Assembly (NCBI RefSeq): GCF_044324875.1
Contig: NZ_CP172185.1
Reading direction: 5' to 3' (one strand)
Length of the DNA stretch: 64,000 nucleotides
Source of the DNA: Escherichia coli
Lineage (GTDB): Bacteria; Pseudomonadota; Gammaproteobacteria; Enterobacterales; Enterobacteriaceae
A program made the translations under genes and the position numbers. Under the pieces are notes generated by a model, which saw only the letters and a list, made by a program, of their open reading frames with translations, was not told the DNA's origin and searched no databases. Positions within the stretch are counted from its first letter, which is position 1. The number at the start of each line of letters is the position of its first letter. Positions 1,975-63,361 of this stretch are shown piece after piece.

Positions 1975-3162
1975 ATGAACTTATCCCTACGACGCTCTAC
2001 CAGCGCCCTTCTTGCCTCGTCGTTGTTATTAACCATCGGACGCGGCGCTACGCTGCCGTTTATGACCATTTACTTGAGTCGCCAGTACAGCCTGAGTGTC
2101 GATCTAATCGGTTATGCGATGACAATTGCGCTCACTATTGGCGTCGTTTTTAGCCTCGGTTTTGGTATCCTGGCGGATAAGTTCGACAAGAAACGCTATA
2201 TGTTACTGGCAATTACCGCCTTCGCCTGCGGTTTTATTGCCATTCCTTTAGTGAATAACGTGACGCTGGTGGTGCTCTTTTTTGCCCTCATTAACTGCGC
2301 CTATTCCGTTTTTGCTACTGTGTTGAAAGCCTGGTTTGCCGACAATCTTTCGTCCACCAGCAAAACGAAAATCTTCTCAATCAACTACACCATGCTCAAC
2401 ATTGGCTGGACCATCGGTCCGCCGCTCGGCACGCTGTTGGTGATGCAGAGCATCAATCTGCCCTTTTGGCTGGCAGCTATCTGTTCCGCGTTTCCCATGC
2501 TTTTCATTCAAATTTGGGTAAAGCGCAGCGAGAAAATCATCGCCACGGAAACAGCCAGTGCCTGGTCGCCGAAAGTTTTATTACAAGATAAAGCACTGTT
2601 GTGGTTTACCTGCTCTGGCTTTCTGGCTTCTTTTGTTAGCGGCGCATTTGCTTCATGCATTTCACAATATGTGATGGTGATTGCTGATGGGGATTTTGCC
2701 GAAAAGGTGGTCGCGGTTGTTCTTCCAGTGAATGCTGCCATGGTAGTTACGTTGCAATATTCCGTGGGCCGGCGACTTAACCCGGCTAACATCCGCACGC
2801 TGATGACAGCAGGCACCCTCTGTTTCGTCATCGGTCTGGTCGGTTTTATTTTTTCCGGCAACAGCCTGCTATTGTGGGGTATGTCAGCTGCGGTATTTAC
2901 TGTCGGTGAAATCATTTATGCGCCGGGCGAGTATATGTTGATTGACCATATTGCGCCGCCAGGAATGAAAGCCAGCTATTTTTCCGCTCAGTCTTTAGGC
3001 TGGCTTGGTGCGGCGATTAACCCATTAGTGAGTGGCATAGTGCTAACCAACCTGCCGCCTTCCTCGCTGTTTATCATCTTAGCGTTGGTGATCATTGCTG
3101 CGTGGGTGCTGATGTTAAAAGGAATTCGTGCAAGACCGTGGGGGCAGCCCGCGCTTTGTTGA
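1975..3162 (+). CDS. ydeE: YdeE MFS transporter, 395 aa
   Basis: 395-aa multi-TM ORF recognised as YdeE. Confidence 0.9.
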   Translation: MNLSLRRSTSALLASSLLLTIGRGATLPFMTIYLSRQYSLSVDLIGYAMTIALTIGVVFSLGFGILADKFDKKRYMLLAITAFACGFIAIPLVNNVTLVVLFFALINCAYSVFATVLKAWFADNLSSTSKTKIFSINYTMLNIGWTIGPPLGTLLVMQSINLPFWLAAICSAFPMLFIQIWVKRSEKIIATETASAWSPKVLLQDKALLWFTCSGFLASFVSGAFASCISQYVMVIADGDFAEKVVAVVLPVNAAMVVTLQYSVGRRLNPANIRTLMTAGTLCFVIGLVGFIFSGNSLLLWGMSAAVFTVGEIIYAPGEYMLIDHIAPPGMKASYFSAQSLGWLGAAINPLVSGIVLTNLPPSSLFIILALVIIAAWVLMLKGIRARPWGQPALC

Positions 3163-3288
3163 TTTAAGTCGAACACAATAAAAATTTAATTCAGCCTTCG
3201 TTTAGGTTACCTCTGCTAATATCTTTCTCATTGAGATGAAAATTAAGGTAAGCGAGGAAACACACCACACCATAAACGGAGGCAAATA

Positions 3289-3384
3289 ATGCTGGGTAAT
3301 ATGAATGTTTTTATGGCCGTACTGGGAATAATTTTATTTTCTGGTTTTCTGGCCGCGTATTTCAGCCACAAATGGGATGACTAA
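3289..3384 (+). CDS. mgtS: MgtS (YneM) 31-aa small membrane protein
   Basis: ATG at 3289 encodes MLGNMNVFMAVLGIILFSGFLAAYFSHKWDD with stop at 3382-3384; not in the ORF track because it is under 60 aa. Confidence 0.85.
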   Translation: MLGNMNVFMAVLGIILFSGFLAAYFSHKWDD

Positions 3385-3411
3385 TGAACGGAGATAATCC
3401 CTCACCTAACC

Positions 3412-3450
3412 GGCCCCTTGTTACAGTTGTGTACAAGGGGCCTGATTTTT
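3412..3450 (+). terminator. Rho-independent terminator of mgtS
   Basis: Stem ggccccttgt...acaaggggcc followed by tgattttt. Confidence 0.6.
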
Positions 3451-3459
3451 ATGACGGCA

Positions 3460-3560
3460 AAAAAAAACCGCCAGTAAACCGGCGGTGAATGCTTGCATGG
3501 ATAGATTTGTGTTTTGCTTTTACGCTAACAGGCATTTTCCTGCACTGATAACGGATCGTT
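3460..3560 (-). ncRNA. mgrR: MgrR small RNA (PhoP-activated), about 95-100 nt
   Basis: Minus-strand unit ending in terminator accgcc-N8-ggcggt plus T9 (3460-3488), preceded by a PhoP-box-like direct repeat at 3590-3610; lies between mgtS and dgcZ as in K-12; ends approximate. Confidence 0.6.
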
Positions 3561-3589
3561 GACACAGTAGCATCAGTTTTCTCAATGAA

Positions 3590-3610
3590 TGTTAAACGGA
3601 GCTTAAACTC
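3590..3610 (-). promoter_or_regulatory. PhoP-box-like direct repeat (GTTTAA-N5-GTTTAA) upstream of mgrR
   Basis: Minus-strand reads gaGTTTAAgctccGTTTAAcat, two hexamers with 11-bp periodicity; overlaps the dgcZ stop. Confidence 0.5.
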
Positions 3611-4493
3611 GGTTAATCACATTTTGTTCGTCAATAAACATACAGCGATTTCTTCCGGTTTGCTTACCCTCATACATTGCCCGGTCCGCTCTTCCAATGA
3701 CCACATCCAGAGGTTCTTCAGGAAATGCGCGACTCACACCTGCAGTCACGGTAATGTTGATATGCCCTTCAGAATGTGTGATGGCATGGTTATCGACTAA
3801 CTGGCAAATTCTGATACCTGCACGACATGCTTCTTCATCATTAGCCGCTTTGACAATAATGATAAATTCTTCGCCACCGTAGCGATAAACCGTTTCGTAA
3901 TCGCGCGTCCAACTGGCTAAGTAAGTTGCCAGGGTGCGTAATACTACATCGCCGATTAAATGCCCGTAGGTATCATTAACCAATTTAAATCGGTCAATAT
4001 CCAACAACATTAAATAAAGATTCAGAGGCTCAGCGTTGCGTAACTGATGATCAAAGGATTCATCAAGAACCCGACGACCCGGCAATCCCGTCAAAACATC
4101 CATATTGCTACGGATCGTCAGCAAATAAATTTTGTAATCGGTTAATGCCGCAGTAAAAGAAAGCAACCCTTCCTGAAAGGCGTCGAAATGCGCGTCCTGC
4201 CAGTGATTTTCAACAATAGCCAACATTAATTCCCGACCACAGTTATGCATATGTTGATGGGCAGAATCCATTAGCCGAACGTAAGGTAATTCATCGTTAT
4301 CGAGTGGTCCCAGATGATCAATCCACCGACCAAACTGGCACAGTCCATAAGAATGGTTATCCGTTATTTCTGGCTTACTGGCATCTCTCGCGACCACGCT
4401 GTGAAACATACTCACCAGCCACTGGTAGTGGGCATCGATAGCCTTATTGAGATTTAACAAGATGGCATCAATTTCCGTTGTCTTCTTGATCAT
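3603..4493 (-). CDS. dgcZ: DgcZ (YdeH) zinc-regulated diguanylate cyclase, 296 aa
   Basis: Translation MIKKTTEIDAILLNLNKAIDAHYQWL... with GGEEF motif (RYGGEEFIII). Confidence 0.92.
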   Translation of the reverse strand: MIKKTTEIDAILLNLNKAIDAHYQWLVSMFHSVVARDASKPEITDNHSYGLCQFGRWIDHLGPLDNDELPYVRLMDSAHQHMHNCGRELMLAIVENHWQDAHFDAFQEGLLSFTAALTDYKIYLLTIRSNMDVLTGLPGRRVLDESFDHQLRNAEPLNLYLMLLDIDRFKLVNDTYGHLIGDVVLRTLATYLASWTRDYETVYRYGGEEFIIIVKAANDEEACRAGIRICQLVDNHAITHSEGHINITVTAGVSRAFPEEPLDVVIGRADRAMYEGKQTGRNRCMFIDEQNVINRV

Positions 4494-58802: not shown

Positions 58803-58930
58803 CTTTTTACCTTAACACTTCCATAACAAGTCATCAGTAGAATACCTGATGAAAACTTGTTTAGAAACGATTGATAGTAAGTAAAAACAGCGCGGTGTAT
58901 TGTGACGTTTTTATATCTACCGTGAATAAT

Positions 58931-59650
58931 ATGAACACTATCGTATTTGTGGAAGATGATGCGGAAGTCGGTTCACTGATTGCCGCGTACCTGGCAAAAC
59001 ATGATATGCAGGTTACCGTAGAGCCGCGCGGCGACCAGGCCGAAGAAACTATTCTGCGAGAAAATCCGGATTTGGTGTTACTCGACATCATGCTACCAGG
59101 CAAGGACGGCATGACCATTTGTCGTGATTTACGCGCAAAGTGGTCCGGACCAATTGTTCTTCTAACCTCTCTCGATAGCGATATGAACCACATCCTGGCA
59201 CTGGAAATGGGAGCCTGCGACTATATTCTCAAAACGACGCCCCCTGCTGTTTTGTTAGCGCGTTTACGTTTGCATTTGCGTCAGAATGAGCAAGCCACAC
59301 TGAGCAAAGGTCTTCAGGAAACGTCTCTGACTCCCTACAAAGCCCTGCATTTCGGCACGTTGACCATCGATCCTATCAACCGCGTAGTCACCCTGGCTAA
59401 CACTGAAATCTCGCTCTCGACAGCTGATTTCGAATTATTGTGGGAATTAGCTACCCATGCCGGGCAAATCATGGACCGCGATGCATTGCTGAAAAATTTA
59501 CGTGGCGTCAGTTATGACGGACTGGATCGTAGCGTGGACGTGGCTATTTCGCGGTTAAGAAAAAAACTGCTCGATAACGCCGCAGAACCTTATCGCATTA
59601 AAACTGTGCGTAACAAAGGCTATCTTTTTGCGCCTCATGCATGGGAATAA
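58931..59650 (+). CDS. rstA: RstA OmpR-family response regulator, 239 aa
   Basis: Receiver domain from MNTIVFVEDDAEVGSL... with winged-helix C-terminus. Confidence 0.92.
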   Translation: MNTIVFVEDDAEVGSLIAAYLAKHDMQVTVEPRGDQAEETILRENPDLVLLDIMLPGKDGMTICRDLRAKWSGPIVLLTSLDSDMNHILALEMGACDYILKTTPPAVLLARLRLHLRQNEQATLSKGLQETSLTPYKALHFGTLTIDPINRVVTLANTEISLSTADFELLWELATHAGQIMDRDALLKNLRGVSYDGLDRSVDVAISRLRKKLLDNAAEPYRIKTVRNKGYLFAPHAWE

Positions 59651-59653
59651 GCG

Positions 59654-63361
<3,708 letters not shown>

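Follow-up and report, generated by a model that had tools for sequence, protein, structure and literature searches.

In Escherichia coli, the small membrane protein MgtS raises the levels of MgtA and of intracellular Mg2+, and the sRNA MgrR represses eptB, ygdQ and pitA; PitA is reported as a common target of MgtS and MgrR. Accumulation of MgrR at low Mg2+ is PhoQ/PhoP- and Hfq-dependent, the mgtS promoter is PhoP/PhoQ-dependent, and the two genes (mgrR and yneM/mgtS) are convergently oriented and directly activated by PhoP, with PhoP binding/PhoP-dependent transcription reported for both promoters on the basis of lacZ fusions. The mgrR promoter was reportedly defined by Moon and Gottesman in 2009. 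A further small open reading frame (ORF), mgtT, forms a PhoQP-dependent operon with mgtS. Its translation has been detected through ribosome profiling of initiation and as SPA-tagged protein on immunoblots, and initiation is induced at low Mg2+; neither membrane localization nor a deletion or overexpression phenotype was found for MgtT. The canonical E. coli PhoP box, as defined by Minagawa 2003 (cited in PMC7667037), is (T/G)GTTTA-N5-(T/G)GTTTA placed at the −35 region. The limit quoted for E. coli boxes is two mismatches, and at some other genes the box lies farther upstream than −35 (PMC7667037).

We compared these systems with a locus in a 64,000-nucleotide stretch of E. coli DNA (the window). 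The locus is confirmed to be the E. coli low-magnesium mgtS–mgrR locus, in which a gene for a small membrane protein and a gene for an sRNA converge: positions 3160–3660 match E. coli K-12 MG1655 at 497 of 501 aligned bases (four differ), and the region is present in 5416 of 5426 complete E. coli genomes. The initial annotation had named mgtS and mgrR and suggested alignment to their K-12 counterparts as a check. This alignment placed mgtS at 3289–3384 (plus strand) and mgrR at 3557–3460 (minus strand) and, together with matches in NCBIfam, Pfam and Rfam, bore out both identities. The K-12 annotation and the literature also agree with its description of the locus as already known—the essentials are all published and the locus is ordinary, without new biology. 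The description as a pair was right for mgtS and mgrR but incomplete, as two further tiny overlapping genes (mgtT and CDS58) had been missed; the locus holds four genes rather than two (CDS58, mgtS, mgtT and mgrR), overlapping or abutting within approximately 420 bp. The features are as follows, in window coordinates.

3188–3204, plus strand: PhoP box of the mgtS promoter, AATTCA-GCCTT-CGTTTA, in which the first half-site is degenerate and the second perfect.
3217–3222, plus strand: mgtS −10 hexamer TAATAT, conserved as a TAnTAT column in the cross-genus alignment.
3236–3289, plus strand: CDS58, a 17-codon ORF (MKIKVSEETHHTINGGK) whose TAA overlaps the mgtS ATG in TAATG.
3289–3384, plus strand: mgtS (yneM; K-12 b4599), encoding the 31-amino-acid small membrane protein MLGNMNVFMAVLGIILFSGFLAAYFSHKWDD.
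3384–3488, plus strand: mgtT, a 34-codon ORF annotated in K-12 (b4775) and by PGAP.
3412–3452, plus strand: mgtS intrinsic terminator, stem 3412–3421/3433–3442 followed by UGAUUUUUAU, with the mapped 3′ end at 3447.
3459–3486, minus strand: MgrR intrinsic terminator, an 8-bp GC-rich stem (3486–3467) and a U9 run (3466–3459), found by the terminator scan.
3460–3557, minus strand: mgrR (K-12 b4698), a 98-nt Hfq-dependent sRNA with its 5′ end at 3557 and its 3′ end at 3460.
3490–3503, minus strand: MgrR seed U55–A68, UAUCCAUGCAAGCA, identical to K-12.
3564–3572, minus strand: extended −10 element of mgrR, TGcTACTGT, with TG at −15/−14 and the hexamer at −12 to −7.
3582–3598, minus strand: conserved PhoP box of mgrR, CGTTTA (3598–3593)-ACATT-CATTGA (3587–3582), at −41 to −25.
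3604–3609, minus strand: distal third half-site AGTTTA, at −52 to −47; its last three bases and the next base contain the dgcZ stop codon TAA (3605–3603).

The mgtS gene does not differ from K-12 (YneM, b4599) in either its coding DNA or its 31-residue product. The protein scored 80.6 bits against NCBIfam NF033842 (cut-off, 35) and 88.2 bits against Pfam PF22865 (cut-off, 27), in both cases over the full 31 residues. Its frame is under strong purifying selection, with 258 synonymous and 69 nonsynonymous codon differences between the window and other genera. Alignment showed that the PhoP box of its promoter is kept as RRTTMA-N5-YGTTTA in Escherichia, Citrobacter, Salmonella, Kosakonia, Phytobacter and others, and that the distance from the box to the −10 hexamer is 12 bp across genera; in the window, the box has four mismatches to (T/G)GTTTA-N5-(T/G)GTTTA. 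Promoter geometry alone predicts that transcription of mgtS starts at approximately 3229. Upstream of mgtS, the ORF at 3236–3289 has a translation identical in sequence to CDS58 of supplementary file 5 of the PIRT-Seq study, in which the SPA-tag signal of CDS58 was weak; in the alignment, its ATG is missing in E. albertii. A conserved 3′ stretch after the mgtS stop codon appeared by eye to pair with a conserved 5′ untranslated region motif (AAGGTAAGCGAGGA), but this candidate was rejected as the 5′ motif is invariant and the 3′ stretch varies without compensation.

The sRNA is likewise close to its K-12 counterpart (b4698; RF01407), with 97 of 98 nt identical and with the same promoter, A-rich motif, seed and terminator. 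The single mismatch, at 3554, gives C in place of U at +4, which is unpaired in the fold, and the window has one more U beyond the annotated 3′ end (A at 3459). MgrR folds (z = −2.9) into a 5′ stem-loop, an open centre that contains the A-rich segment and the seed, and the terminator, in agreement with published structure probing, and the seed (U55–A68) pairs with targets that include eptB (PMC6239178). Rfam family RF01407 (STnc560) matched positions 3591–3378 on the minus strand over the full model (1–214) with 281.1 bits (gathering score, 55; E = 4.5e-65), and its boundaries are far wider than the 98-nt sRNA. A literature search for a link between the names ‘STnc560’ and ‘MgrR’ returned none; we equate the two given that the coordinates of the Rfam match overlap K-12 mgrR. 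RNAalifold analysis of the whole MgrR alignment recovered the terminator and nothing else, and we make no claim of covariation for the 5′ stem-loop because this region is too divergent for reliable alignment.

Species for comparison were chosen by an exact match to the MgrR seed, and the set is therefore biased towards close relatives. A 19-mer that contains the seed, invariant by construction of the search, was found in approximately 79 enterobacterial species representatives. Among 84 genome matches, five (L025, L045, L059, L065 and L077) were left out as chance 19-mer matches with no terminator after them. Two others (L008 and L085), representing enterobacterial DNA under non-enterobacterial labels, were left out of the counts, and L017, although a true MgrR locus, was left out of the promoter, half-site and terminator counts.

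Both hairpins between mgtS and mgrR are real intrinsic terminators. The plus-strand hairpin has a folding energy of −22.6 kcal/mol (z = −4.8; none of 200 shuffles folded as well). All nine pairs of its core are formed in 35 of 35 orthologous sequences, and eight of the nine occur as two or more pair types, showing compensatory changes across genera. A clean T7–8 tract follows the hairpin in other genera, and a Term-seq 3′ end of K-12 (1622804, plus strand) corresponds to window position 3447. The hairpin was absent from the results of a simple terminator scan, which we attribute to its bulged inner stem and long loop. For the MgrR terminator (−13.7 kcal/mol, z = −4.6), which with its poly-U tail is the Hfq-binding module, six of the seven consensus stem pairs are intact in every one of 73 species sequences and the seventh, innermost pair is intact in 71, with compensatory alternation among G·U, A-U and G-C between species; the Term-seq 3′ end (K-12 1622824, minus strand; score, 2.4 million) lies at window position 3467. 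Convergence with closely spaced terminators, as first described for this DNA, was thus upheld: Term-seq ends map on both strands, and only 8 nt (3451–3458) separate the T-run of one terminator from the A-run of the other. Two facing hairpins are also characteristic of other convergent pairs with close or shared intrinsic terminators. Unlike a shared bidirectional terminator, however, each E. coli hairpin has its own U-tract and serves one strand only, making these two unidirectional terminators. In Kluyvera, the mgtS stop codon lies approximately 12 nt from the MgrR terminator and there is no separate mgtS hairpin.

A scan for the sigma-70 −35/−10 consensus gave no promoter match at either gene; given that both promoters are activator-dependent, we did not count this against them. 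Upstream of mgrR, the extended −10 pattern TGnTAnnnT was found in 74 of 75 species loci, as was the longer arrangement GTT[TG]A-N6-nTT..-N-TGnTAnnnT. Some of the columns counted as invariant here were imposed by the anchor pattern itself; the final T (74 of 74) lies outside its constraints. The initial annotation had placed a PhoP-box-like repeat over the dgcZ stop codon, and this repeat (GTTTAA at 3608–3603 and 3597–3592, minus strand) is indeed present. On its own it is only mildly improbable—GTTTA-N6-GTTTA occurs once in the 64-kb window versus 0.09 expected, and 9 of 100 shuffles contained at least one match—and it gains meaning from lying immediately upstream of where mgrR begins. The box that is conserved across species is instead the promoter-proximal pair, CGTTTA-N5-CATTGA at −41 to −25. 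Its middle half-site, GTTTA, is essentially invariant among 74 species, and its proximal half-site matches KGTTTA at no fewer than four of six positions in 64% of them, compared with 8% for background. The mean score was 5.3 for the middle, 3.7 for the proximal and 2.4 for the distal half-site, with a background of 1.8. The proximal pair lies 12 bp from the −10 element, a spacing that the mgtS promoter shares. This pair, counted from the annotated 5′ end of MgrR (3557), and the mgtS box are both at the −35 region of promoters that have no −35 hexamer; the hexamer pair at −52 to −36 lies outside that region. Both promoters resemble the canonical system in having direct hexamers with an 11-bp period in place of the −35 element, with one perfect GTTTA each. 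They differ from it in that the upstream half-site of mgtS is degenerate (AATTCA) and in that mgrR has three half-sites, of which the pair at the canonical position (middle and proximal) has four mismatches and the pair with two mismatches (distal and middle) lies one helical turn upstream. On the basis of cross-species conservation, we infer that PhoP occupies the promoter-proximal pair. As an internal comparison for box geometry, we looked at the rstA promoter, which also lies in the window, but dropped it owing to the ambiguous placement of its −10 element.

Alternatively, the working PhoP box of mgrR may be AGTTTA-AGCTC-CGTTTA at −52 to −36, in which case PhoP would act one helical turn farther upstream than −35 and CATTGA would be irrelevant. 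The two mismatches of this pair are within the limit quoted for E. coli, its repeat is unique in the window and the boxes known farther upstream at other genes offer precedent (PMC7667037); moreover, the three half-sites, spaced 11 bp apart, face the same side of the helix, which could allow both registers to serve. The distal hexamer at the exact 11-bp spacing, however, is conserved in Escherichia only (KGTTTA matched at four or more of six positions in 18% of the 74 species, versus the same 8% background). It is shifted by ±1 bp as a GTT-containing element in Citrobacter and Enterobacter, and Kluyvera, Kosakonia, Leclercia and Pluralibacter lack it although the remainder of the promoter is preserved there. 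Given these patterns and the better conservation and mgtS-like spacing of the proximal hexamer, we consider the upstream register unlikely, and the pair at −41 to −25 the probable site of PhoP binding.

Downstream of mgtS, the ATG of mgtT overlaps the mgtS TAA (TAATG junction at 3382–3386), and the frame, after crossing the mgtS terminator, shares 29 nt with the 3′ end of mgrR. MgtT matched Pfam PF23498 with 92.2 bits (cut-off, 27). Compared with K-12 MgtT (b4775; PF23498), the position and the TAATG overlap with mgtS are the same and 33 of 34 residues are identical, with K26 instead of E26 (E26K); K26 is a minority allele in E. coli, for which the PGAP label is ‘hypothetical protein’ rather than ‘protein MgtT’. 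That mgtT encodes a functional 34-amino-acid protein under selection, which would make the overlap with mgrR true dual coding, is suggested by its annotation in K-12 and by PGAP, by the existence of a Pfam family, and by the initiation signal and its induction at low Mg2+, the tagged protein on blots and the recovery of in-frame PIRT-Seq fusions. The PIRT-Seq insertion, however, lies 17 nt into the frame and reports initiation only, and the literature describes no membrane localization or phenotype. The two overlapped RNA hairpins account equally well for the high identity of mgtT within E. coli (at least 99% in 4952 of 5416 records). Compared across genera, the frame is not conserved as coding sequence beyond E. 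coli: it has 34 codons in E. coli and E. albertii only, 30 in E. whittamii (through a frameshift) and 7 to 83 outside Escherichia. Within Escherichia, mgtT has 19 nonsynonymous and 3 synonymous changes versus 4 and 5 in mgtS (Fisher p = 0.027; small counts, with no phylogenetic correction). The mgtT ratio is consistent with neutral evolution, and several of its substitutions are compensatory or stem-improving in the hairpins. Full-length MgtT also needs read-through, given that the mapped plus-strand 3′ end (3447) falls inside mgtT codon 22. We therefore judge a selected 34-residue protein to be improbable, and MgtT is better read as a probable lineage-specific by-product than as a conserved protein.

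The beginning of the frame behaves differently. An ATG that overlaps the mgtS stop codon is present in 35 of 35 non-Kluyvera sequences, and the ATG and the first ~8 codons (M-N-G/D/T-D-N/S-P-x-P) are conserved across genera, the codons being semi-conserved with a weak wobble pattern. Considering this conservation and the detection of MgtT–SPA on blots, translation at mgtT may have some function. We give little credence to the more specific proposal that the conserved item downstream of mgtS is not MgtT but a translationally coupled mini-ORF that ends or runs on at the 5′ arm of the terminator, where re-initiating ribosomes would cover or melt the arm, set read-through into mgrR antisense and leave non-stop complexes on terminated transcripts, with E. 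coli MgtT as a lineage-specific long form.

The two transcription units are not cleanly separated, given that mgtT runs through the plus-strand terminator into mgrR and that read-through occurs on both strands; a Rho-dependent termination region on the minus strand at window position 3196 places minus-strand transcripts across mgtS in antisense. Close convergence could itself be regulatory, with mutual antisense read-through coupling mgtS/mgtT and MgrR through interference or an RNA duplex. These minus-strand transcripts fit such coupling, as do the extension of mgtT into mgrR (with the tagged protein implying some plus-strand read-through), the extension of the Rfam family, defined in Salmonella, 82 nt past the MgrR terminator, and the firing of both promoters under the same condition. 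Both terminators are strong, however, with a Term-seq signal at the MgrR end approximately 1000 times that at the plus-strand end. The spacer between the terminators ranges from 8 to approximately 60 nt across relatives, so that the overlap is not conserved, and approximately 33 species have MgrR without an adjacent mgtS. The papers searched reported no MgrR–mgtS interaction, and an RIL-seq paper on EPEC, in which this RNA–RNA interaction was sought, does not mention mgtS. Regulatory convergence thus appears decidedly improbable.

The full explanation that we favour, and consider highly probable, is as follows. Two convergent PhoP-activated promoters lie approximately 330 bp apart; neither has a −35 element, and in its place each has a PhoP box that consists of one perfect GTTTA and one degenerate half-site and spans −41 to −25, with 12 bp between it and the −10 hexamer. 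The plus-strand promoter produces an mRNA of a predicted length of approximately 220 nt with three small ORFs (CDS58, mgtS and mgtT) that overlap serially through TAATG junctions. The first of these yields a weakly expressed 17-amino-acid product, and the 31-amino-acid MgtS is the conserved functional product of the mRNA. The minus-strand promoter produces the 98-nt MgrR, with its 5′ stem-loop, A-rich Hfq motif, seed (U55–A68) and terminator with a U8–9 tail. The 34-amino-acid MgtT can be encoded by read-through transcripts only, and such transcripts cover the terminator of MgrR in antisense.

The locus is a textbook case of a small protein and an sRNA that cooperate in one stress response (Mg2+ limitation, through PhoQ/PhoP), and both mgtS and mgrR are easily overlooked by ORF-based annotation. 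The use of the analysis lies in a corrected map of the window, with four genes in approximately 420 bp, a terminator inside an annotated coding sequence, an Rfam family that overshoots the sRNA and a PhoP-box register that differs from the most obvious repeat. It also bears on how new bacterial microproteins are to be interpreted, as the MgtT frame follows the overlapping hairpins whereas conservation is seen at its start codon and the first codons after it.

The segment at 3160-3660 aligned without gaps to 1622517-1623017 of Escherichia coli K-12 MG1655, with four mismatches in 501 bases (3183, 3459, 3554 and 3642), and the region was found in 5,416 of 5,426 complete E. coli genomes. K-12 annotation was transferred to the window by a constant offset; with CDS58 added, the map is as follows:

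1975-3162, + strand: ydeE (K-12 annotation transfer)
3236-3289, + strand: CDS58, a 17-codon ORF (MKIKVSEETHHTINGGK) equal to PIRT-Seq CDS58
3289-3384, + strand: mgtS (K-12 annotation transfer)
3384-3488, + strand: mgtT (annotated in K-12 and by PGAP)
3557-3460, − strand: mgrR (K-12 annotation transfer)
4493-3603, − strand: dgcZ (K-12 annotation transfer)

MgtS (31 amino acids) is identical to the K-12 protein and scores far over the cut-offs of NCBIfam NF033842 and Pfam PF22865, mgrR is identical at 97 of 98 positions, and the single Rfam family on the − strand (RF01407, 'STnc560') matched with 281 bits at 3591-3378. Alignment to the annotated K-12 genes, the check named by the initial annotation, therefore bears out its identification of mgtS and mgrR; this convergent locus is published, and nothing in its identity is new. 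Both members of the described 'pair' are present, but two more small ORFs (mgtT and CDS58) had been missed, which makes the locus a series of three small ORFs, each overlapping the next, in convergent orientation to an sRNA gene. The initial reading is thus supported with three amendments: the two extra ORFs, a terminator that lies inside an annotated coding sequence overlapping the sRNA gene, and a different conserved register of the PhoP box.

The back-to-back terminators were confirmed on both strands. The + strand hairpin (stem 3412-3442, then UGAUUUUUAU) folds with −22.6 kcal/mol (z = −4.8) and the − strand terminator (stem 3486-3467 plus U9) with −13.7 kcal/mol (z = −4.6). Although a simple terminator scanner reported the − strand terminator only, we accept the + strand hairpin given the comparative and experimental evidence. 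Its nine core pairs form in all 35 distinct orthologous sequences (Escherichia, Citrobacter, Salmonella, Kosakonia, Phytobacter, Pluralibacter, Yokenella and others), with at least two pair types at eight of the nine, and a clean T7-8 tract follows the stem in genera other than Escherichia. Term-seq 3′ ends at K-12 1622804 (+) and 1622824 (−), the latter with approximately 1,000 times the signal (Adams et al. 2021, supplementary file 1), correspond to 3447 and 3467 in the window, so that the usual ends of the two transcripts are 19 nt apart. A Rho-dependent termination region on the − strand (K-12 1622553, window 3196) indicates that some transcripts extend beyond the MgrR terminator and cross mgtS in antisense, and detection of tagged MgtT indicates some + strand read-through; a minority of transcripts on each strand is thereby shown to read through.

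The mgtT start codon shares the A of the mgtS TAA (TAATG junction), and its frame crosses the mgtS terminator to end at 3488, overlapping the oppositely oriented mgrR by 29 nt. The MgtT protein was discovered in ribosome profiles of stalled initiation complexes, and a chromosomal SPA tag confirmed it, at a level below that of MgtS; the mgtS-mgtT operon is PhoQP-dependent, and MgtT is not membrane-associated and has no phenotype on deletion or overexpression. The + strand end at 3447 is the first base of mgtT codon 22, and terminated transcripts hence carry no stop codon for this frame. Judging from this Term-seq coordinate and the annotation, full-length MgtT would come solely from read-through transcripts.

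Among loci with an adjacent mgtS, a length of 34 codons for the frame on the mgtS stop is confined to E. coli and E. albertii; a 1-nt deletion leaves 30 codons in E. whittamii, and in the remaining loci the frame ranges from 7 to 83 codons. Within Escherichia, differences from the window were 19 nonsynonymous and 3 synonymous in mgtT versus 4 and 5 in mgtS (Fisher p = 0.027), whereas the cross-genus codon differences in mgtS were 258 synonymous and 69 nonsynonymous. In mgtT, several 'nonsynonymous' changes represent both sides of compensatory hairpin substitutions, and one strengthens a G·U pair of the MgrR terminator. On this comparative evidence we conclude that the MgtT sequence is probably shaped by the two overlapped RNA hairpins and not by protein-level selection. 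A3459 gives MgtT K26 instead of E26, a minority allele (most E. coli records are one base off the window in mgtT). All 35 non-Kluyvera sequences keep the ATG that overlaps the mgtS stop, and the approximately eight first codons (3384-3410, +; MN-G/D/T-D-N/S-P-x-P) show partial conservation and a weak wobble pattern (slightly more third-position variation). In several genera the frame ends after 7 to 9 codons, just 5′ of the terminator hairpin.

The CDS58 TAA overlaps the mgtS ATG in another TAATG junction, and PIRT-Seq detected a faint SPA-tagged band. If the mgtS transcript begins near 3229, only some 7 nt would precede the CDS58 ATG, which is absent in E. albertii. Within the mgtS 5′UTR, the motif AAGGTAAGCGAGGA (3245-3258, +) is near-invariant in Escherichia, Citrobacter, Kosakonia, Pluralibacter and Phytobacter, and the flanking UTR is variable.

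The mgrR promoter elements, all on the − strand, are as follows:

3609-3604: distal half-site AGTTTA, −52 to −47
3598-3593: middle half-site CGTTTA, −41 to −36
3587-3582: proximal half-site CATTGA, −30 to −25
3572-3564: extended −10 TGcTACTGT, TG at −15/−14, hexamer −12 to −7
3557: transcription start G, +1

The proposed PhoP-box-like repeat (3608-3603 and 3597-3592, −) is real, as is its overlap with the dgcZ stop codon (3605-3603, inside the distal hexamer), and GTTTA-N6-GTTTA occurs once in the 64-kb window versus 0.09 expected; the conserved box, however, lies in another register, at −41 to −25. The arrangement GTT[TG]A-N6-nTT..-N-TGnTAnnnT is common to 74 of 75 species loci; the anchor pattern, which these 74 satisfied, itself fixed some of the invariant columns, but columns that it left free, the final T of the −10 among them, are likewise invariant. 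Scored against KGTTTA (maximum 6) over 74 species, the middle half-site averaged 5.3 (at least 4 in all species, each locus having 5 or 6), the proximal 3.7 (at least 4 in 64%) and the distal 2.4 (18%), compared with 1.8 (8%) at background offsets. According to the literature, a PhoP box in E. coli sits at the −35 region and carries no more than two mismatches (PMC7667037); the distal–middle pair has two mismatches but lies outside that position, whereas the conserved middle–proximal pair lies at that position but, in the E. coli sequence, carries four. The mgtS promoter, kept across genera, has AATTCA-N5-CGTTTA (3188-3204, +), 12 bp and TAATAT (3217-3222), the same box/−10 geometry as that of mgrR. 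Both registers may be used at mgrR. Given the conserved proximal half-site, the −35 position and the shared mgtS geometry, we favour a PhoP box at −41 to −25 for both mgrR and mgtS; the distal hexamer of mgrR would be an Escherichia-specific extra half-site on the same helix face. Direct PhoP activation of both promoters has been reported from lacZ fusions.

Elsewhere in the window, three PhoP-like half-sites at 11-bp spacing (TGATGA, TGTTTA and GATTGA; 58847-58874, +) lie directly upstream of response-regulator and sensor-kinase ORFs (58871-59650 and 59654-60955). We take this pair, starting MNTIVFVEDD..., to be rstA-rstB, a known PhoP-activated operon; if so, this would be a second PhoP promoter besides the mgtS-mgrR locus.

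MgrR is a class II Hfq-dependent sRNA that base-pairs with eptB and other targets through its seed (U55-A68, 3503-3490); ygdQ and pitA are further regulated genes. Relative to K-12, G3554 places C, not U, at +4, unpaired in the fold, and A3459 supplies the ninth U behind the stem. The RF01407 match comprises 34 nt of promoter, the 98-nt sRNA and 82 nt past the MgrR terminator, including complements of the mgtS terminator and stop. The family boundaries therefore exceed the gene, and RF01407 matches should not be taken as sRNA boundaries.

Scanning one genome per species with the MgrR seed 19-mer gave 84 loci (numbered with L), approximately 79 of them true enterobacterial. A convergent mgtS adjoins MgrR in Escherichia, Salmonella, Kluyvera, Kosakonia and Yokenella, most Citrobacter, and some Phytobacter and Pluralibacter. 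In approximately 33 species, MgrR and its PhoP promoter lie beside unrelated genes (Enterobacter cloacae complex, Lelliottia, Leclercia, Silvania, Siccibacter and Huaxiibacter; L005, L011, L024, L034, L066, L069 and ~27 others), and tblastn found no MgtS-like ORF anywhere in these loci. In Kluyvera and relatives (L010, L031, L033, L048, L055, L074, L075 and L078) the mgtS stop is ~12 nt from the MgrR terminator (~34 nt in L033); these eight loci lack both a separate mgtS hairpin and an ATG across the stop, and their MgrR has an extra UAUA 5′ of the terminator stem. Citrobacter has ~60 nt between the two terminators. These differing spacings indicate that the close packing seen in Escherichia, like the overlap of mgtT with mgrR, is lineage-specific. 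Enterobacteriaceae bacterium RIT691 carries the MgrR 3′ portion twice on the same strand, 1.6 kb apart (L014 1438-1456 and 3032-3050); the mgtS-adjoining copy lacks the conserved PhoP-box promoter, which the other has. Contigs labelled as a Caldithrix MAG (L008, with MgtS and MgtT identical to E. coli K-12) and Chryseobacterium sp. 18061 (L085) contain enterobacterial mgtS-mgrR DNA and are probably contaminated or mislabelled public assemblies.

In a working account drawn partly from the literature and partly from inference, low Mg2+ would activate PhoQ/PhoP, and PhoP~P would bring RNA polymerase to the two promoters, neither of which has a −35 hexamer. MgtS increases the amount of MgtA and the intracellular Mg2+, and PitA, going by the title of a published paper, is acted on by both MgtS and MgrR.
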